From contig CAWCOD010000005.1 in the NCBI GenBank assembly GCA_963797055.1, positions 7,947 through 71,946 of the forward strand: 64,000 nt of DNA, given 5' to 3'. The notes beneath the pieces are model-generated. The model saw nothing but the letters and a program-made list of their open reading frames with translations, had not been told where the DNA came from and made no database searches. The position numbers and the translations under genes are program-made. Shown here in pieces: positions 23,387 to 38,515 of the stretch (the first letter of the stretch is position 1; every line of letters begins with the position of its first letter). The DNA comes from an uncultured Holophagae bacterium (GTDB lineage Bacteria; Acidobacteriota; Thermoanaerobaculia; Thermoanaerobaculales; Sulfomarinibacteraceae).

Positions 23387-24601
23387 ATGGTGGGTACCCC
23401 AGTGCAATTTGATCCCCCCTCCGTGGAGCTGAGTGCCGAGCTGAACTGGGTGCTGGCGCGGGCCTTCGGCCCGTTGGATGTGACGTGCGATGCCCGGCTG
23501 GATGGGAACGGACTGATCGATGGGGCGAAACGGCTGGCGTTGGCGGCGCGGATCGGGGCACGAATTCCACCCGAGGTCCTCGCGACGGAGGTGGGCGAGG
23601 ACGTCGCCGCGGGGTTGCAGCAGGCCTACGGTGACGCGGCGGCCCTCGATCTCGCCTCCGCGGGCCTGTGTCGTCAGATCGCAGCACTGGGAAACGCCAT
23701 CGAAACACCGGTCATCGCGTTGAAGGGTGCGGCCCTGCGGGAGTCCGGTATCACTGCCGCGGGTTCACGGCAGGCGTGTGACGTGGATGTGGTGACCCTC
23801 GAGTCGCGGCTCGACGACCTGCACCAGGCCGTTGTGTCGGAGGGATACCGGGTGTCTGATATGCGGTCCGCCGAACATGAACTCGACGCCCTCTTCCATC
23901 CGTCCGGGTTGATGATCGAGATCCACCGGTATGTCAGAGGCGTTCGAGTCGTGGAAGGTCGATCCGCAACCGCGGATGATCTGCTCGACAACGACCTGTG
24001 TCGAAGCCGTGGAGACGATGGGAGTGGGCTGCTGGTGCCCGATCCCCACGTCGTGCTCGCCCATCTCCTGGTCCACGGCATCGCCCAACACGGCAATGCG
24101 CCATGGTCGTACCCGCTGCTGCGGTTGGTGGGGGATGTGCAGGACATGGGGTTGGACCGAGCAGGTTGGTCGACCTTCCTCGAGAGGGGTTGGCCGTGGA
24201 TCGCTCGGGATGTGAGTCGTGCGGAAGCCACTGCCGTGTGGGAGATCGGGTGCCGGCTCGGGATGGGGGAGTCACCCGACGCGGTCATCGCCGGCAATGA
24301 CCCGTGCGGTCTGGTGCTGGCCCACATGGTGGCGGGCACGTTGGATGAGGAGTATCAGCGATCACTGCGGATCGCGCATCTGGCGCGGCCGGTGGCCGGG
24401 ACCACCGTCGGCCGAACCCTCGTAAGAAAAGTGATGACGAATCTCTGGCTGCGGCGCGGTGAGATCGACCAGATCTACGGGCCTCAACCCAATGCGGGCC
24501 GGTATCTGGCGATGCGCCTGTGGCGGCCTGTGGATCTCGCGCTGCAGGCCGCGGGATCACTTCGGGCACGGTCGGCGATCAAAAAACGGAGCAATCGGTA
24601 G
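23387..24601 (+). CDS. Uncharacterised nucleotidyltransferase family protein (NTP_transf_5-like)
   Basis: VIALKGAALRESGI...RQACDVDVVTLESRLDDLHQAVVSEGY...LMIEIHRYV fits the KG-aal...R...D-D-llv...G-y...E-H pattern of that family. The family is known to co-occur with lasso-peptide kinases. Confidence 0.6.
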   Translation: MVGTPVQFDPPSVELSAELNWVLARAFGPLDVTCDARLDGNGLIDGAKRLALAARIGARIPPEVLATEVGEDVAAGLQQAYGDAAALDLASAGLCRQIAALGNAIETPVIALKGAALRESGITAAGSRQACDVDVVTLESRLDDLHQAVVSEGYRVSDMRSAEHELDALFHPSGLMIEIHRYVRGVRVVEGRSATADDLLDNDLCRSRGDDGSGLLVPDPHVVLAHLLVHGIAQHGNAPWSYPLLRLVGDVQDMGLDRAGWSTFLERGWPWIARDVSRAEATAVWEIGCRLGMGESPDAVIAGNDPCGLVLAHMVAGTLDEEYQRSLRIAHLARPVAGTTVGRTLVRKVMTNLWLRRGEIDQIYGPQPNAGRYLAMRLWRPVDLALQAAGSLRARSAIKKRSNR

Positions 24602-24609
24602 CGATAAAT

Positions 24610-24640
24610 AATTCGCAATTCGCAATTCGCAATTCGCAAT
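24610..24640. repeat. Heptamer tandem array (AATTCGC x4.5)
   Basis: aattcgc aattcgc aattcgc aattcgc aat read directly, 9 nt after the stop at 24601. Confidence 0.9.
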
Positions 24641-24776: not shown

Positions 24777-25004
24777 ATGGGAGGGCGCACCGTGAGCGAG
24801 CTGCATCTCAGTGATCTTGCAGCGGATCTGGAGAGCTATATGGCCGAGCTGTCCGCCCGTCGGGCGTCCGCCTGCAGGGTGGGGCCGGAGAATCCCTTTG
24901 ACGGCCGCGACACTCCGGATCTCTTCACCATTCTGTCCGAGCCGTGGAGCGACACCGAGGTCGAGGAGTTCCTCGAGCTCGTGAAGGTGCCGGAAACCCT
25001 GTAG
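24777..25004 (+). CDS. Small acidic hypothetical protein (70-75 aa)
   Basis: ORF with a possible GTG start at 24792 preceded by gggaggg. It is followed by a strong hairpin terminator. No recognisable family. Confidence 0.4.
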   Translation: MGGRTVSELHLSDLAADLESYMAELSARRASACRVGPENPFDGRDTPDLFTILSEPWSDTEVEEFLELVKVPETL

Positions 25005-25075: not shown

Positions 25076-25103
25076 GTTACACGTTACACGTTTAACTTTC
25101 AAC
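25076..25103. repeat. Heptamer tandem array (GTTACAC type, 4 units)
   Basis: gttacac gttacac gtttaac tttcaac. It abuts and overlaps the stop codon of the ABC exporter at 25099. Confidence 0.75.
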
Positions 25104-26931
25104 TTCCTCCCGTTTCCATCTGCTCCCTCCACGCCCTGGCGTAGCGCCCATTCCGCGCCAGGAGTTTCTGATGGTTGCCCGACTCCACGATGCGTCCCTC
25201 GTCCAAAACGTGGATGATGTCGGCGCGCATGGCGGTGGTGAGGCGGTGCGAGATGATGATGGCGGTGCGGCCCTCGGCCACCAGGCGAAATCGCCGAGTC
25301 CATTCGATTTCGGACCACGAGTCCATCGCGCTGGTGGGTTCGTCGAGCAGGATCACCGGCGCCTCCCGAACAGCCGCACGGGCCAGGGCGATCCTCTGCC
25401 ATTCGCCCACCGACAACTCGGTTCCGCCGGTGAACCAGCTGCCGAGCAGGGTATCGAGCCCGTTGGGCAGTCGCCCTATGATGGCGTCGGCGCCGGCCAA
25501 CGACACGGCATCGTCGAGACAAGCGCTCGACGCGTTGTTGCCCACTGAGCCCAGCTCGATATTGCGCCGGACGGTCTCCGAGTAGTGCATGGGTTGCTGG
25601 AACAGGACGGTGACCAACCGCCGCGCCTCGGCCAGACCCATGTGTTTGAGGTCGCGCCCGCCGATTTCGATGAATCCCTCCTCGGGATCGTAGAGTCGGC
25701 ACAACAGCTTGAAGAGGGTGCTCTTGCCGGCGCCGTTGACTCCGAGCAGGGCGGCGATCTGGCCCGGCGCAACCTCCAGGTCGAAACCATCGAAGACGAG
25801 CCGATCCGAGCTGGGGTACCGGAAGGTCAGGTCGCGGAAAACAACACCTGGAGGCGACTCGGTCGGCTGCGGCTGTGGCTCGTCGGGATCCGAGATCTCC
25901 GGTTCCACGTCAAGAAATTCGAAGAGGTTTTCCAGGAACATGATGTTCGTGACGACCTGGCCGACGGTGGCAAGCAGGGTCCGCATGAGTTTCTGGCCCT
26001 GGTTGAACGCCTGGAAAAACATGGCCAGGCTGCCGAGAGTTGCGGCGCCGCGCAGCGTGCGTACCAGCATCCACGCCACCGCGGCGCCCATCACCACGAG
26101 GGCGGATGCCCCGGCCGCCATCTCGGCGAGGGCCTGAGAACGGGCGAGATCAATCTGTTCACCCCTGAGCCGCCGCCGGAGGTCGCGGAAGCGGGATGAG
26201 AACGTGCCGGCGAGGTCGAAGAGACGGATTTCGGGTGCCGGGTCCCGGTTGGTGAGGAGCCAGTCATAGTAATAGGAGCGCCGAATGTCGGATGTCGCGC
26301 CCACTCGCCAGCGGTGCTGCCGAATCGCGAACCGCAGCACCACCATGAAAACCGGAACCGCGCTCAGGACAAGGGCCAACGGCACCCACCAGCCGAATTG
26401 GAAGAGTACTCCCGCCATTGCCACCAGGGTGATGCCGTTTTGGAGCAGACTGCCCAGACCCTCCACCAGCGCGACGGGACGGCCGTAGGCGTCAATGCGC
26501 GCCCGGTGGAGCTGATCGTGGTATTTCGGAGTCTCGTAGTACGCCAGATCCACCGCGGTGGCCCGGTTGTGAATGAGTTTGGACAGGTGATCCGCCACGA
26601 GTTCCGACTGGGCGGTCCGCACCCACCGGGTCGCGGCCTGTAGGAGATCGGAAACAAGCATCAGGGCAGCCATGAGCAGGGCGAGCAGCAGCGGCTGTCG
26701 GATAGCGGCCCAGCTCCCACCGGCATCCACCGCCGCCACGAGACTGTCCACCAGGAACTTCGTAAGCGCGACGATGGCCACCGGCAAAATGCCCTGGACA
26801 ACCAGGAGAAGGACCCAGGCCACCGTCCACGCCCCGCCGGCCTCCCACACCAGACGGAGCGCCCGTGGGATATGGGGAAGCTGAGCGCGGACCTTGTTCA
26901 GCTTGGAGGTGAGTTCGCCGCCTTCGGGCAT
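25099..26931 (-). CDS. ABC transporter, fused permease/ATP-binding exporter (McjD-like position in the lasso module)
   Basis: N-terminal 6-TM ABC membrane domain. Walker A LLGVNGAGKSTLFKLL, signature ELSVGEWQRIALARA and Walker B VILLDEPTSAMD. Confidence 0.9.
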   Translation of the reverse strand: MPEGGELTSKLNKVRAQLPHIPRALRLVWEAGGAWTVAWVLLLVVQGILPVAIVALTKFLVDSLVAAVDAGGSWAAIRQPLLLALLMAALMLVSDLLQAATRWVRTAQSELVADHLSKLIHNRATAVDLAYYETPKYHDQLHRARIDAYGRPVALVEGLGSLLQNGITLVAMAGVLFQFGWWVPLALVLSAVPVFMVVLRFAIRQHRWRVGATSDIRRSYYYDWLLTNRDPAPEIRLFDLAGTFSSRFRDLRRRLRGEQIDLARSQALAEMAAGASALVVMGAAVAWMLVRTLRGAATLGSLAMFFQAFNQGQKLMRTLLATVGQVVTNIMFLENLFEFLDVEPEISDPDEPQPQPTESPPGVVFRDLTFRYPSSDRLVFDGFDLEVAPGQIAALLGVNGAGKSTLFKLLCRLYDPEEGFIEIGGRDLKHMGLAEARRLVTVLFQQPMHYSETVRRNIELGSVGNNASSACLDDAVSLAGADAIIGRLPNGLDTLLGSWFTGGTELSVGEWQRIALARAAVREAPVILLDEPTSAMDSWSEIEWTRRFRLVAEGRTAIIISHRLTTAMRADIIHVLDEGRIVESGNHQKLLARNGRYARAWREQMETGGS

Positions 26932-26943
26932 GGCCGGAGGGTA

Positions 26944-28041
26944 TCAGAGTCGAGAGGCGAGCGATTCCGGTGCGCGCGCCTCATTGCAGAGAGTATTGAG
27001 GGTGATCTCGGGTTCCTCCAGCATGTCGCGCCCGAGCCGGACGTCGAATCCCCGACAACTCTCGGCGAGAGTGGCCAGCACCGACAAAGCTCCTGCTCGT
27101 GCTCGGGGGTACCTTGGCGACAGGGTCAGTAGCGAGGCCGAAGATACAAGGGCCACCAGGGCCTCCTGTGTGGACAACGGTCGGATTCTGCTGGCGCGCA
27201 AGCGACGGTCGATCCCCAGCTGCCACAGTTGGTCCGGAATCAGTTCCGCGGCGAGGTTGTCGGGACACGACAGGCGATCGAGATAATGAGCGTCAACACC
27301 CTCGGTGGTCTTGCTTCTCAGCCCATCGGGCAACACCGCCAGGGTGGCGTCCCGGAAGCTGAAGTACGCCCTGAAAGGACCAAGCTGGACTCGGCCGTCG
27401 CATGGGCCCGCGAGGACGGAATCGTCCGACGCGACCCGCCCTCCGGATCGGATGGCGGCGGCGGTGATCGTTGATTTTCCGGCCCCGCTCCCGCCCACTC
27501 CAAGAACGGTATCGCGGCCGATCTGGAATGCTACTGCGTGGAGGCAGATCACACCGAGCCGACCCAGGGCGAGACCCATGGCGGTCTCCATGAGATCGGG
27601 GGACGGGCCGTCTTCCAGCCCAGCGGTCGGGGTCCATTCCACTTGGATGATCGGAGATTCCCGGGTCAGCCGGATCAGGCCGGTCGGGAATTGGAGCTCA
27701 TCGCCTCCACGGATCACGCGGTGTAGCGGGTGGACGGATCCAACGCGGGGTGGACTTGGAAGGGGACGACTGGTGGCTTGCGCACGTTGGACGGCCAGCA
27801 CGGCCGTACGCGGACCCGCAGGGTCCGCCGGGGCATGAACCACGGAGGTTTCCCACAATCGGGCCAGACGGTCGGCCTGAGCCGCGGTCAGTCCACGAAC
27901 TCTGACCGGGGTCCGGGGGCGTGTCCCGGTGAACCGGAAGTCGACGACCGTGGATTCAGCCCTCTGCGTCACCGGAATCCTCGTTGAAAGGTTGTTTGCG
28001 GGACGATTGCCATCTCTGTCGAACGCGATTATTGAGATCAA
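26944..28041 (-). CDS. HprK-related P-loop kinase (lasso-peptide kinase-like)
   Basis: VICLHAVAFQIGRDTVLGVGGSGAGKSTITAAAIRSGGRVASDDSV resembles the HPr kinase C-terminal domain. It lies directly downstream of the cyclase and the small ORF. Confidence 0.65.
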   Translation of the reverse strand: MISIIAFDRDGNRPANNLSTRIPVTQRAESTVVDFRFTGTRPRTPVRVRGLTAAQADRLARLWETSVVHAPADPAGPRTAVLAVQRAQATSRPLPSPPRVGSVHPLHRVIRGGDELQFPTGLIRLTRESPIIQVEWTPTAGLEDGPSPDLMETAMGLALGRLGVICLHAVAFQIGRDTVLGVGGSGAGKSTITAAAIRSGGRVASDDSVLAGPCDGRVQLGPFRAYFSFRDATLAVLPDGLRSKTTEGVDAHYLDRLSCPDNLAAELIPDQLWQLGIDRRLRASRIRPLSTQEALVALVSSASLLTLSPRYPRARAGALSVLATLAESCRGFDVRLGRDMLEEPEITLNTLCNEARAPESLASRL

Positions 28042-28099: not shown

Positions 28100-28300
28100 C
28101 TACTTTCCGCTGCTGCCAAGACCGCCGCTGCCAAGCTTCGTTCTGCCACCCGACGGATTGTCAGGATTGTCGTCCACGGTCAAGGCATGAACGATGGAGG
28201 CAATTCGGCGCACCGTGACGGTTGGACGCTGATAGGAGCGCAGAATATGGCTGCGATCCGTGTCGTGTGTGCACTGCTGAGACATTCTGTCGACTTTCAT
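28100..28300 (-). CDS. Candidate lasso-peptide precursor (66 aa), non-canonical core
   Basis: ATG at 28300 with GGAG 9 nt upstream. Product: MKVDRMSQQCTHDTDRSHILRSYQRPTVTVRRIASIVHALTVDDNPDNPSGGRTKLGSGGLGSSGK. It has a YxxPxV leader-like motif and an ALT-V junction, and it sits between the cyclase and the kinase on the same strand. Confidence 0.4.
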   Translation of the reverse strand: MKVDRMSQQCTHDTDRSHILRSYQRPTVTVRRIASIVHALTVDDNPDNPSGGRTKLGSGGLGSSGK

Positions 28301-28376
28301 GATGACGAACTCCGGCCCAATCGTTAGGAACACTGTTCGACTGAGTTGTCTGAACCGTTAATGTAACATACTGCAC

Positions 28377-30077
28377 TCAAGAAGTGCAACTTCTTTCCCT
28401 TATGTAAACCTCAGCAACGTTCAAAAGCATGACGTTGAAAAGCGTTGCTTCGTCGTGATCACGGATCCGAGACACCTGTTGCATCCAATCGGGGTCAACG
28501 ATTTTCTGTCCCACGAGATTCCACGAAGACATTTCGGATTCAGCGACGACCTTGCGCGCGGTTGCTTGAAAAACGGGGCCATAGCCCGTCTTGTCCAGTC
28601 GATCAAGAACCGCTGGAGGCGCCAGACCCGCTCCCGCCAGTCGCAGAAGGTGTTTGTTGCGGATGCCGTGGGTGAGAGCCCGGCCCGGAACCCTCAGAGA
28701 GAATTCGATGACGTCGAGATCCATGAAGGGGCATCGGCGCTCCACGCCATATCTGGCCATGACCTGCTCGCCGCTTTCGAACTCATGCCAATTCTGAGTG
28801 AGGATCAGTTTGCGGAGCAGGGAGCGGCGCGACCGACTTCGGCGTTGTCGTCCGTCGAGTGCTGCGATTCGTCCGTCGAAATCGACGAACGGCCGTTTCC
28901 GCTCGGGGTGGAGCCATTCCAACGGCCCGGGAGATGTGGAAGTGAAACGGACGCGGCGCAAAACGGGTTGAATGAGGTGGCTGTGAATGAACCGGAATCG
29001 CGTCTGCCCGGGAACAAGCTGAAATCTGAAGAGGTCACGGACGAGTTCGAATAGATTTCCGGAGAGAAGGTCGTCGGCCAGGTAGGAGGTGGTACCCCCG
29101 AGCCACTCGTCGGCGCCTTCGCCGACGAGATCGATGCGGCGACCGTCTCGAGAAAGCCGCCGGGCGTGTTGTTCTGCGTAGGGCAACCCGCCGGAGTGGA
29201 GACCATCCACTTCGGCCGCGAGTCGCGCGACGTCGGGCCGGAGGTCGTCGGTTCTGAAGTCCATCAGCACGCCGTCCGTGCCGGTGAAACGATGGGTTTC
29301 CAGAATCCGGTCGGTTTCGTCGCACGCCAGACCCGGAAAGACGTGGGAGTAGGCTCGGCCCTGCGCCGCCACCGGATCGCCCCCTCGGATGCGTCGAGCC
29401 ACCAAACCCCACAGAACCGTGGAGTCGATACCACCGCTGAGACTGACCGCGAACGGAACATCCTCGAGGCATCGGTCCAAGGCACGATCGAGGAGAGCTT
29501 CGAGTTCGGCGACGAGTTCAGCCACGTCGTATCGTCGTCCACCCTCTGCCGGGGGCTTCCAAAAAGCCTCGCTGCGCGCCTCGGATCCGTCCGCCTCGGC
29601 CGGGAATTCGACGGCTGTGTTTGGTTGCAGGCGGGCAACCTGTCGTACAAGCGTCAGACACGGATCTTCGTGCTCGATGAGCATCTCCTGGACAAGCCCG
29701 TCCACATCGATCTCCGGACTGATTTCGGCCCCCGAAATCACCTGTCGGACCTCGGTGGCGATAAACCTGCGGTCGCCGGTTGAACCGTGGAAGAGTGGAC
29801 GGTGGCCGATGACGTCGCGAACCGCGAGCAGGGTGCGCAGCCTGCGGTCGTAGATGAGCATGGAGAATTCTCCGCGGAGCTTCGAGAAGAGGGCTCGGCC
29901 GAGATCCTCATAGGCCACGGCGACCCGGGCGGCATGGGAGGCATCGTCGGGGAATGACCAGTGGTGGCTCGAAGCGAGCTCGGCCCAGTTGCCGATGAAC
30001 CCGTGAACGGCCACCGTCCAGTTCCCTGCGGTGGCAAGCGACGCGTCCCCATTGTTGGCCTGGATCCCAAGGGCCAC
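28377..30077 (-). CDS. Asparagine-synthetase-like protein, probable lasso-peptide cyclase (C protein)
   Basis: AsnB-like fold with the ATP-pyrophosphatase motif FAVSLSGGIDSTVL. The N-terminus MALGIQ lacks the Cys2 nucleophile of glutamine-dependent Asn synthetases. Confidence 0.75.
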   Translation of the reverse strand: MALGIQANNGDASLATAGNWTVAVHGFIGNWAELASSHHWSFPDDASHAARVAVAYEDLGRALFSKLRGEFSMLIYDRRLRTLLAVRDVIGHRPLFHGSTGDRRFIATEVRQVISGAEISPEIDVDGLVQEMLIEHEDPCLTLVRQVARLQPNTAVEFPAEADGSEARSEAFWKPPAEGGRRYDVAELVAELEALLDRALDRCLEDVPFAVSLSGGIDSTVLWGLVARRIRGGDPVAAQGRAYSHVFPGLACDETDRILETHRFTGTDGVLMDFRTDDLRPDVARLAAEVDGLHSGGLPYAEQHARRLSRDGRRIDLVGEGADEWLGGTTSYLADDLLSGNLFELVRDLFRFQLVPGQTRFRFIHSHLIQPVLRRVRFTSTSPGPLEWLHPERKRPFVDFDGRIAALDGRQRRSRSRRSLLRKLILTQNWHEFESGEQVMARYGVERRCPFMDLDVIEFSLRVPGRALTHGIRNKHLLRLAGAGLAPPAVLDRLDKTGYGPVFQATARKVVAESEMSSWNLVGQKIVDPDWMQQVSRIRDHDEATLFNVMLLNVAEVYIRERSCTS

Positions 30078-30179
30078 GCCGTGTTCGATATGGTGTTCGG
30101 GGGCACCGCGATAGGGAGACCGGCGTCAGCATCCGGTGAAGCCGCAACGGCAGCTCGGGGTCCCCGCTTTCACCGATGA

Positions 30180-30671
30180 TTGCTACAATCGCGCCCATGC
30201 CGTAAGGCAAGTATATGGAAGTACGAACAGGATCAGCCACGCTTTCGTGACCCCGGAGATGTCGTTCTCTTTTTGAGGGCGCTGCCTCTGGCTCGGCGCG
30301 CCCAGAGGGTGGGAGGGACTCCGTTGCCGGAGGTTGTGGCCGCCATGGGCGGGGTGGCTGGACGGGAGAAGGAGGCCCGGCGGGTGCAGGTCGCGGCCGG
30401 CCGGGCATGCTCGGCGTACGGTCGGCTCTTCGGCGGACTCGACTCGTGTTTGACCCGTTCGTTGGTGGCTGGCGCCATGTTGTCGGAGGCGCACGACGTC
30501 GTCCTGCACGTAGGGTTCCGGCCCGGCTCGGACGATGTGCCCGTGGATGGCCACGCGTGGCTGACGGTGGACGGGGCGCGTCTGGACGCGATTCCCCCGG
30601 ACGATCTGGACCGTCCATACGCCGGGGTCCTTGAGATTCCCTTCGGGGTGCAGAGAAGGAGCGGAGGATGA
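30180..30671 (+). CDS. Lasso-peptide B2 protein (transglutaminase-like leader peptidase)
   Basis: SCLTRSLVAGAMLSEAHDVVLHVGF...VDGHAWLTVDG is the Cys...His signature of McjB-C-terminal/B2 proteins. The start is uncertain (TTG 30180, or ATG 30214 plus a shift). Confidence 0.75.
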   Translation: MLQSRPCRKASIWKYEQDQPRFRDPGDVVLFLRALPLARRAQRVGGTPLPEVVAAMGGVAGREKEARRVQVAAGRACSAYGRLFGGLDSCLTRSLVAGAMLSEAHDVVLHVGFRPGSDDVPVDGHAWLTVDGARLDAIPPDDLDRPYAGVLEIPFGVQRRSGG

Positions 30672-30968
30672 GCAGGATCGAGGAGCTGTCACGGTTGTTG
30701 GCATCGGACGAGGAATTCACGCAACAGAAATTGTCCGATTCGAACCGGAGTGATCCTGGACGTGGACTCTCTCCAGGTCTTTTCCCTCAATCCCACCGGG
30801 CAGTTCCTGGTGGATTGTCTGCGGCAGGGTGTGACCACCGAAAGCGGTTTGGTGGAGCGACTGGTGGGCGAGTTTGACGTCGGGGAGGCAACGGCGAAGG
30901 AGGACGTCGCCGGCTTCCTGGGGGAGCTTGAGACGTACTTGATCGAAAAGCGGATCAAAAAGGGCTGA
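30668..30968 (+). pseudogene. PqqD-family protein (lasso B1 / RRE), probable frameshift near 30748
   Basis: The ATG at 30668 overlaps the B2 stop (ATGA). Frame 2 gives MSRIEELSRLLASDEEFTQQKLSDSNRS, then frame 3 gives ILDVDSLQVFSLNPTGQFLVDCLRQGVTTESGLVERLVGEFDVGEATAKEDVAGFLGEL (PqqD pattern). Alternatively it is a short 72-aa protein from GTG 30750. Confidence 0.7.
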
Positions 30969-30974
30969 GAGGCC

Positions 30975-31050
30975 CATTGCGAATATTCGAAATTCGGAAT
31001 TCGACCCTACCCAACCCCCTCTATTCACTATTCACTATTGACTATTTGCT
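30975..31050. repeat. Composite repeat: heptamer array (ATTCGAA type), C-box, heptamer array (TATTCAC type)
   Basis: cattgcgaatattcgaaattcggaattcga / ccctacccaaccccctc / tattcac tattcac tattgac tatttgc. Confidence 0.85.
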
Positions 31051-33583: not shown

Positions 33584-33820
33584 CGAATTCCGGATTGCAG
33601 ATTTCATATTGCAGATTGCATATCCCCCCGCCCACCTGGGAAGGTTGCGCTGATCGGGCGTGACAACCTTGACGACGTTGTAGCCAGGTCGAATTTTGAA
33701 TTCTCAATTTTTAATGTTGATTTCCTCCCTCTCCCAACCAGAGGACCGGGGGGACGGGTGGGAATTCAAAATTTAGAATTCTCGATCCAGCGTTCAACGT
33801 GTAACGTTGAACGTCAAAAC
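33584..33820. repeat. Dense composite intergenic repeat region (several heptamer arrays, C/G boxes, GATCGGGCGTG box)
   Basis: gattgca gatttca tattgca gattgca / ccccccgcccacctggg / ctgatcgggcgtg / gaattttgaattctcaattt / ctccctctcccaacc...ccggggggacgggtggg / aattcaaaatttagaattc / gttcaacgtgtaacgttgaac. Confidence 0.85.
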
Positions 33821-35100: not shown

Positions 35101-35147
35101 GTCGAATTGCAGATTGCGGATTGCAGATTGGGTGGGGTGGAGGGGGG
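35101..35147. repeat. Heptamer array (TGCAGAT type) plus G-box
   Basis: gtcgaat tgcagat tgcggat tgcagat tgg / gtggggtggagggggg. It lies between convergent genes. Confidence 0.85.
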
Positions 35148-38413: not shown

Positions 38414-38515
38414 CCCGCCACCCGACAATTTGCGAATTACGAATTACGAATTGCAGATTGCAGATTACAAATTACAAATTACAGATTGCAGATTGCGGAT
38501 TCCCCCGCCCACCCG
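38414..38515. repeat. Longest heptamer array (11 units, GAATTAC/AGATTGC) flanked by two direct C-boxes
   Basis: cccgccacccg / aatttgc gaattac gaattac gaattgc agattgc agattac aaattac aaattac agattgc agattgc ggattc / ccccgcccacccgg. Confidence 0.9.

Follow-up and report, generated by a model that had tools for sequence, protein, structure and literature searches.

The stretch of DNA considered here (the window, 64,000 nucleotides of contig CAWCOD010000005.1 from an uncultured Holophagae bacterium of the Acidobacteriota) carries a lasso peptide biosynthetic cluster, and the subject of this report is the short gene that lies between its cyclase and kinase genes. Scans with Pfam and NCBIfam profiles identified the neighbors: genes for a leader peptidase (B2) and a PqqD-like RRE protein (B1) run divergently from those for the cyclase (C), the short peptide (A), an HPr-kinase-like peptide kinase (K) and an ABC exporter (D), and a nucleotidyltransferase gene (N) is convergent with them (Table 1). 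A first-pass annotation, made from the sequence alone, had picked out the short open reading frame (ORF) as a candidate precursor whose core does not fit lasso rules, and had left two options for it, a precursor of non-canonical type or an ORF that is not the substrate. Its conserved position and protein sequence in every related cluster that we recovered speak for the first of these options and against the second.

A conserved small gene between cyclase and kinase

The ORF runs on the minus strand from an ATG at 28300 to a TAG at 28100-28102, 76 bp downstream of C and on the same strand, and its 66-amino-acid (aa) product matches the quoted peptide exactly. The description given earlier, of a GGAG-preceded ORF with a 9-nt spacer in a 335-bp gap between cyclase and kinase, was thus confirmed in coordinates and product. 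The gap is measured from the cyclase stop at 28377 to the start of the longest kinase ORF at 28041; GTG 27972 is the more probable kinase start, given the 342-aa length of the database protein P0003 and a GAGGA 5 nt upstream of this codon, and the spacer between precursor and kinase would then be about 127 bp. Further ORFs on the minus strand of the gap, of 71, 21 and 30 aa, are overlapping or out-of-frame, and none of them is conserved as a protein. The YxxPxV segment that had been likened to a leader motif, Y23-Q-R-P26-T-V28, is an RRE-binding motif of the YxxPxL type with Val replacing Leu, and its Tyr and Pro are invariant in 13 aligned sequences. When Y..P.[LIVM] was sought at 25-60 residues from a stop, the precursor was the sole intergenic ORF found between 20 and 36 kb, while the one other match in this interval falls within the NTP_transf_5 gene, on the opposite strand. 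Over all six frames the 64-kb window holds seven such Y..P.[LIVM] matches, and a rough estimate puts at about 2% the chance that this gap would contain one on the precursor's strand.

Relatives of the peptide were sought by a word-indexed search over 5.8 billion proteins, by kinase and cyclase queries with subsequent contig retrieval, and by an exhaustive hidden Markov model (HMM) search. The word-indexed search returned one relative, P0002 (70% identity, 66 aa), whose cluster, on contig CAVQBD010000006.1 from the metagenome-assembled genome (MAG) of an uncultured Holophagae, is syntenic throughout. Kinase and cyclase queries added further clusters (L002/L003, L004 and L024), each with a 67-aa ORF in the slot between C and K, and the HMM search, run with a two-sequence profile over 1.84 billion representatives, yielded P0009 and P0011 as its sole small relatives, the former known from the protein library alone. 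Three very long proteins (P0010, P0012 and P0013) also matched the HMM, in 7-21 stretches each, and were set aside as presumed low-complexity or repeat matches. A contig scan with a single kinase sequence gave no matches, and a profile-based contig scan recovered only the known Holophagae MAG and one Terriglobales fragment. The close family therefore consists of the window peptide and four distinct orthologous peptides (L001/L007, L002/L003, L004/L024 and P0009), which are 58-71% identical to it, the most distant being at 42%.

These orthologues bear directly on whether the ORF is a real gene. Pairwise ratios of nonsynonymous to synonymous substitution rates (dN/dS) among the window, L001, L002 and L004 are 0.22-0.38, with an excess of third-position differences, and differences in length amount to whole codons only, near the N-terminus and at the very C-terminus. 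The first-pass annotation had named a different conserved small ORF in homologous clusters, or substitutions of a non-coding kind, as patterns that would speak against the candidate; instead, orthologous peptides fill the same slot and the substitutions are those of a constrained protein. It had also warned that a single-nucleotide indel might have altered the C-terminal half. Since five independent assemblies share the frame, the frame of this half is confirmed and no such error is present in this ORF, although the warning proved apt for B1 and for the N-terminus of the cyclase. The ORF is a genuine, conserved gene under purifying selection, with a conserved slot directly after C, and it is the lasso precursor of the cluster.

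Leader/core boundary and predicted ring

The search for the ring acceptor leads to Asp47 (codon at 28160-28162), the only acid of the C-terminal half that is kept in all five family members; in L004/L024 this half holds one acid, and it aligns with Asp47. Since only this residue can be a conserved acceptor, the core has to begin at residue 39, 40 or 41, and Asp47 stands at +9 counted from Ala39 and at +8 counted from Leu40. The annotation had preferred a cut after Thr41-Val42, which would preserve a Thr at -2, but residue 43 (Asp in the window, Gly in all four orthologues) has no acid 7-9 positions on, and with T41, the only Thr near the junction, at -2, every member of the family would lack an acceptor at +7 to +9.

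The choice among the possible starts was guided by an outgroup of seven peptides, each encoded immediately after a cyclase that shares 32-46% identity with that of the window. With a slash at the predicted cut, these are L025 (...RRKYARPHITPLHIASIIS/GTTPTAQSD...), L026 (...RRAYERPHIEPHDVSRSIL/GNESPVTAD...), L027 (...RRVYAPPTIAVSRAHAAIA/GGTGPTKE...), L028 (...RRPYEAPRVTAFESVKSIL/GPLTSGVAD...), L029 (...RRPYEKPRLEPHDFSNAIL/GNVTPTTLD...), L008 (...RRQYARPAVSRLRLENVVR/GSGGTKKD...) and L005 (...RRPYLRPEVRERTLTAVVK/GGPLGSME...). All seven contain Y-x-x-P-x-[LIV] and, counted from the Tyr, an Ile or Val at offset 14, a Gly at offset 16 and an Asp or Glu at offset 23-24. No gaps are needed to align L025 with the window peptide across IASI[IV], the Asp, the GG pair and the basic/hydrophobic block. 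In MAFFT alignments, V37, A39 and D47 of the window fall in the Ile/Val, Gly and Asp/Glu columns of the outgroups, and Ile or Val is invariant in the V37 column across 12 sequences in this inferred register; the Asp47 column holds Asp in six of the seven, the Glu of L005 lying one position earlier. An alignment with four of the outgroups also placed Ala39 in the column of Gly1 of BsfA, the precursor of the bsf cluster of Bradymonas sediminis FA350, which contains K and N; BsfA has Ile at -2 and a G1-D8 ring (Duan et al. 2023, PMC10368454).

The register that best accommodates the family is Y(-16), P(-13), V(-11), V(-2) and H(-1), followed by A(+1) and D(+9), with the YxxPxL motif spanning -16 to -11 (only a start at Leu40 would move it to -17 to -12). 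On this alignment the ORF probably encodes the precursor of a split-B lasso cluster that is cut between His38 and Ala39, with Val at -2, and closed as an Ala1-Asp9 macrolactam. Cleavage before Ala39 had been kept as a fallback, with the loss of Thr(-2) as its price, and the seven outgroups now lend it their backing. The apparent breach of lasso rules dissolves once the grammar of the family, with Val or Ile at -2 and Tyr at -16, is read from its relatives.

Several observations weigh against this assignment. At the predicted +1 the window peptide has Ala and the seven outgroups have Gly, but its four closest relatives carry Arg, Gln, Gln and Lys there, and no other position of that stretch is as variable among close relatives. 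The +1 residue is normally the best conserved of a lasso core, and Arg, Gln or Lys at the predicted first core position is the oddest feature of the family. The widely used Y(-17) rule, which is valid for BsfA, would set +1 at Leu40. Pfam and NCBIfam scans of the precursor peptide gave no profile matches, and the likeness of the kinase to characterized lasso kinases is limited to the P-loop region. The copy in the window could be inactive if the frameshifts in B1 and the cyclase, described below, are genuine, and the cut site, the ring and the threading are predictions from sequence comparison.

A genuine precursor with the same acceptor, cut between Ala39 and Leu40, would form a Leu1-Asp8 ring with His or Asn at -2 and with Tyr(-17), Pro(-14) and Val(-12). 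The distance from Tyr to acceptor would then be 24 residues, equal to that in BsfA with its G1-D8 ring and Y at -17, the variable position 39 (A/R/Q/Q/K) would become a typically variable -1 residue, the Leu1-Asp8 ring has a precedent in citrulassin, and kinase-linked precursors of the Thr(-2) type from soil metagenomes also use Y(-17) and begin with A, I, V or T. In the seven outgroups, however, the Gly lies one column earlier, at offset 16, and together with the Ile/Val at offset 14 forms the expected +1/-2 pair; position 40 is itself variable (L, L, M, K, L), and no precedent for His or Asn at -2 was found in the lasso literature compared, so that we regard this start as unlikely. A cut before Thr41 would use the only conserved small hydroxyl residue as +1, Thr/Ser41 being invariant in the five family members, and would give a Thr/Ser1-Asp7 ring. 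Seven-membered rings have a precedent in the G1-D7 ring of huascopeptin, but we know of no lasso peptide with Thr at position 1, the Tyr would move to -18, no conserved residue would stand at -2 (A/R/Q/Q/K), and the Gly column of the outgroups would be mismatched; such a start seems very improbable.

It is harder still to believe in the cut after Thr41-Val42, which would release from Asp43 onward an unusual non-lasso or very-small-ring peptide. The T/S-x-G of four of the five family members does mimic a canonical T(-2)-x-G(+1) junction, but in no member would positions 7-9 hold Asp or Glu, the one conserved acid would fall at position 5, the L004 core would have no other acid at all, the Tyr would stand at -20, and the outgroups have no Thr in the T41 column; Gly/Asp43 as +1 was rejected for want of an acceptor. 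An equally small chance attaches to the ORF being fortuitous, or an unrelated small protein, with the precursor elsewhere, for example in the acidic ORF at 24777-25004. The missing profile match and the presence of this second conserved small ORF in the cluster are compatible with that view; the purifying selection on the peptide gene, its slot directly after C in 12 independent clusters, and its combination of an RRE-binding motif with a conserved acceptor speak against it. The ORF at 24777-25004 was itself rejected as precursor: it has no YxxPxL motif, its 88% identity is like that of a folded protein, and it is missing from the distant clusters searched.

Neighboring genes and putative expression signals

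Table 1. Features of the lasso cluster in the window (positions are those of the 64,000-nucleotide stretch)
Feature	Position	Strand	Evidence and remarks
Nucleotidyltransferase, NTP_transf_5 (N)	23387..24601	(+)	PF14907, E 5.9e-17
Small acidic ORF	24777..25004	(+)	70-75 aa; between N and D
ABC exporter (D)	25099..26931	(-)	ABC_tran, MsbA-like models
HPr-kinase-like peptide kinase (K)	26944..27972	(-)	weak match to NCBIfam TIGR04352 (HprK-related kinase A), E 1.2e-5, below the curated cut-off
Stem-loop	28049..28070	(-)	CAGCCGA-N8-TCGGCTG, downstream of precursor stop
Precursor gene (lasso A)	28100..28300	(-)	66 codons + TAG stop; ORF translation, same-slot orthologues, dN/dS
Predicted core, residues 39-66	28103..28186	(-)	ALTVDDNPDNPSGGRTKLGSGGLGSSGK; Ala39 = +1, Thr41 = +3, Asp47 = +9, predicted ring acceptor
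15-nt tandem duplication	28107..28135	(-)	LGSGG/LGSSG; TRF period 15, 1.9 copies, 92% matches
Predicted leader, residues 1-38	28187..28300	(-)	Y23-Q-R-P26-T-V28; invariant I36-V37; Val37 = -2, His38 = -1
Ribosome-binding site GGAG	28310..28313	(-)	9-nt spacer to ATG; within conserved block GG(G/A)CCGGAG
Upstream block	28360..28389	(-)	TTGCAC, 18 nt, TACATT; overlaps cyclase stop codon; contains palindrome GCACTTCTTGAGTGC
Palindrome	28372..28388		TGCACTCAAGAAGTGCA; over cyclase stop codon and conserved TTGCAC hexamer; kept in four loci
Lasso cyclase (C)	28377..30198	(-)	Asn_synthase/GATase_7 (Pfam), lasso cyclase (NCBIfam)
Leader peptidase B2, transglutaminase-like	30180..30671	(+)	PF13471 (Transglut_core3); NF033537 lasso_biosyn_B2, above its cut-off
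B1, PqqD-like RRE	30668..30968	(+)	PF05402 and lasso PqqD models, which identify a PqqD-type gene at 30750-30968

The genes upstream of the precursor are disturbed in places. A tblastn comparison with the N-terminus of L024 showed that 24 N-terminal codons of the cyclase (30127-30198, MGAIVAIIGESGDPELPLRLHRML) lie in a different frame from its ORF at 28377-30077; the cyclase thus carries a 1-nt frameshift near 30126, and the annotated 566-aa product is therefore truncated at the N-terminus. With the true start of the cyclase at 30198, upstream of the nominal B2 start at 30180, the B2 start must be mis-set as well and is probably at or slightly after 30216; the alignment of B2 with its orthologues begins at residue 13-14. 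B1 is broken by one extra base near 30738-30742, as judged by DNA alignment with L001 and L024. Its orthologues have about 99 aa, and the intact window version would start MSRIEELSRLLASDEEF. The cyclase of the sister Holophagae MAG has frameshifts of its own, and the frameshifts in B1 and cyclase are most simply read as long-read assembly errors.

Further along the cluster, the kinase motif H..G..G.GKS..DD is intact and invariant in an alignment of six homologues, and the kinase shares 36% identity with BsfK over 47 aa across the P-loop (BsfK 145-191); the distance of BsfK, BsfB1 and BsfB2 from the window proteins is too great to call them orthologues. The exporter is 76-87% identical across the orthologous clusters, and the N protein, a candidate second tailoring enzyme, is 73% identical in L001. 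Between these two genes lies the highly acidic ORF at 24777-25004, which is 88% identical in the Holophagae MAG (L001 13754-13966) and more conserved than the biosynthetic enzymes, and has no Pfam or NCBIfam match; an immunity, regulatory or chaperone role is our guess. A syntenic acidobacterial cluster (L027 2772-4943, GCA_025490975.1) has the same bactofilin, AI-2E transporter, B1 and B2 neighbors; in it, a gene for a PrmA-like methyltransferase and an unannotated gene of 329 aa precede C, and the precursor (...AAIA/GGTGPTKE...) is followed directly by the ABC exporter. Tandem repeats of 7 bp recur in the window at 24610-24640 (AATTCGC x4.4), 30980-31004 (CGAAATT x3.4), 31021-31046 (CTATTCA x3.7), 33593-33620 (GATTGCA x4), 35106-35130 (ATTGCAG x3.6) and 38435-38501 (AATTACA/ATTGCAG x7.5). 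Those compared with the ORF list lie between genes or at their ends, and two of the repeats flank the lasso cluster on both sides.

We read the precursor gene as carrying its own expression signals. The 100 nt upstream of it are near-invariant in the window, L001, L003 and L004 despite being non-coding, and the block GG(G/A)CCGGAG is kept in four loci. Further upstream, the block that overlaps the cyclase stop codon would be a putative promoter or operator of the precursor itself; its TACATT reads TAGATT in most orthologues, and a strict sigma-70 scan called no promoter. For the palindrome over the cyclase stop, a role as operator or as terminator of the cyclase gene is conceivable. Past the precursor stop, the window, L001 (where UUCUUUU follows) and L003 form a hairpin at matching places; with z-scores of -1.6, -0.7 and +0.2 in the three loci it is not significant, and it might possibly act as a partial terminator or attenuator between precursor and kinase.

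Predicted processing, phosphorylation and relation to known lasso systems

Under the preferred start at Ala39 the tail would comprise 19 Gly/Ser-rich residues, NPSGGRTKLGSGGLGSSGK, whose conserved GG-(R/K)-x-(K/R/Q)-L block suggests itself as the plug, with R14, K16 and L17 as candidates. For the dehydrated core, the calculated monoisotopic mass is 2638.295 Da with this start (2718.261 Da with one phosphate), as against 2567.258 Da from Leu40, 2454.174 Da from Thr41 and 2254.057 Da from Asp43 (2272.068 Da if linear). The 15-nt tandem duplication explains some of the length of the Gly/Ser-rich C-terminal extension in this subfamily, and the distant homologue L025 ends shortly past its GGKGKF block. 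The C-terminal residue is Lys in the window peptide and Gly in all four orthologous peptides; the earlier remark that it is not Ser therefore extends to the whole family. Two hydroxyl residues are invariant in the subfamily, Thr/Ser41 and Ser/Thr63. The former stands at the predicted +3, as Thr41 in the window and as Ser in L004/L024, and Thr3 recurs in L025 and L027, though not in L026, L028, L029, L005 or L008.

Characterized systems offer two patterns for the kinase. The paeninodin kinase requires a C-terminal Ser (PMC8498205); no family member ends in Ser, so that a phosphosite of the paeninodin type is impossible here. BsfK phosphorylates Ser3 of the BsfA core, also accepting Thr, and is stimulated by B1, and the C-terminal residue of BsfA is Asp (PMC10368454), for which reason the kinase acts on Ser3. 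By analogy, Thr3 would be the BsfA-like candidate phosphosite of the window peptide, with the conserved Ser25 as the alternative. In pseudomycoidin, the nucleotidyltransferase PsmN, encoded by gene N, adds hexoses to the phosphate (PMC8498205), which suggests a possible role for the N gene in the window.

Where the peptide is cut, how it is closed and threaded, which residue is phosphorylated and in what order are all inferred from these comparisons, as follows. The RRE of B1 would bind the leader motif Y23-x-x-P26-x-V28, and the B2 peptidase would cut between His38 and Ala39, reading Val37 at -2 instead of Thr, with Tyr at -16. The cyclase would then close the Ala1-Asp9 ring by a bond between the alpha-amine of Ala39 and the Asp47 side chain, and the 19-residue tail would thread through this ring and be held, probably, by the conserved Arg14/Lys16/Leu17 block. 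Phosphorylation by the kinase would fall on a Ser or Thr elsewhere than at the C-terminus; the nucleotidyltransferase may then modify the phosphate group, and export of the product would be the task of the ABC transporter. A broader version of this scheme, in which the peptidase/cyclase pair of the whole clade works with Tyr(-16) and Val/Ile(-2) and tolerates Ala, Arg, Gln or Lys at +1, the kinase acts at Thr3 or an internal tail Ser, and the nucleotidyltransferase extends the phosphate, is put forward tentatively, and we think it possible but rather doubtful.

By analogy, the window peptide would work like BsfA rather than like paeninodin. The two clusters share split B1/B2 genes, C, D, an HPr-kinase-like K and a nucleotidyltransferase N, and the two peptides share a YxxPxL-type leader, an aliphatic residue at -2 (Ile in BsfA, Val in the window) and a C-terminus that is not Ser; at core position 3 BsfA has Ser, and the window peptide has Thr at the predicted position 3. 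They differ in the Gly1-Asp8 ring and Tyr(-17) of BsfA, as against a predicted Ala1-Asp9 ring and Tyr(-16), and in core length (21 aa versus 28 aa, the latter with a duplicated Gly/Ser tail), and there is no detectable peptide homology outside the motif. Cleavage of BsfA by BsfB2/B1 has been shown in vitro, and the mature Bsf lasso peptide has never been observed (PMC10368454). The phosphorylated lasso peptides of the paeninodin group in Firmicutes (PadeA, ThcoA, BaceA and PapoA), together with pseudomycoidin (PsmA), resemble the window peptide as predicted in their A1-D9 macrolactam with Ala1 (PadeA core AGPGTSTPD...) and in clusters with an HPr-kinase homologue, some with a nucleotidyltransferase. 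Their precursors differ in that Thr stands at -2, the aromatic residue (Tyr or Trp) is at -15 and a C-terminal Ser is obligatory as the phosphosite, and they have no sequence similarity to the window peptide.

Within the phylum, precursors with Ile or Val at -2 have been predicted in Acidobacteriaceae (Granulicella, Acidobacterium and TAA 166; Duan 2023, PMC10368454; Tietz 2017). They share the aliphatic -2 residue with the window peptide but have short MxYxxPxI leaders and cores ending in Y(Q/E)ADE, and in TAA 166 B2 is fused to C; the window peptide belongs to another precursor family, with no evident relation to them. Unusual first residues are known elsewhere: Asn1 has been demonstrated in metanodin, with Gln1 predicted in a relative (PMC12670498), and citrulassin and fusilassin begin with Leu1 and Trp1. 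They show that cyclases can take a +1 residue beyond Gly, Ala, Ser and Cys, which bears both on the Arg, Gln and Lys of the orthologues and on the Leu40 alternative, but they keep Thr(-2) and come from unrelated clusters without K or N (PMC12670498).

A separate set of precursors was noted in soil metagenomes (L009 ~5646, L013 ~1911, L010 ~280, L020 ~2699, L021 ~5552 and L022 ~5552). These have a perfect YxxPxLxxxGxxxxxTx leader and precede the matched kinase segment by about 240-500 bp, lying in L009, L013 and L021 between the cyclase match and the kinase. Their first suitably placed Asp or Glu is at core position 10, for example in KVTR/ALAHFAPNKDGG, so that either the ring has 10 members or the cut falls one residue past the canonical site.

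Taken as one more lasso cluster from a MAG, the locus would add to a class, and to an Ile/Val(-2) subclass, that are already known. Rule-based precursor finders weight Thr(-2), Gly1 and, in kinase clusters, a C-terminal Ser, and would probably miss or down-score the window peptide. The five close and seven distant peptides, all encoded immediately after a cyclase wherever their context is known, together give an alternative grammar for uncultured Acidobacteriota, Y-x-x-P-x-[LIV]-x8-[IV]-x/G or A, with D or E at position 8 or 9. To our knowledge, ring closure on long or charged N-terminal residues has never been observed, and we know of no lasso peptide with Arg1 or Lys1; if the proposed boundary is true, the rings of this family would be closed on N-terminal residues with just such side chains. 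The set is thus a test case for how strict lasso cyclases are about core position 1, and for where kinases other than those of the paeninodin type place their phosphate.

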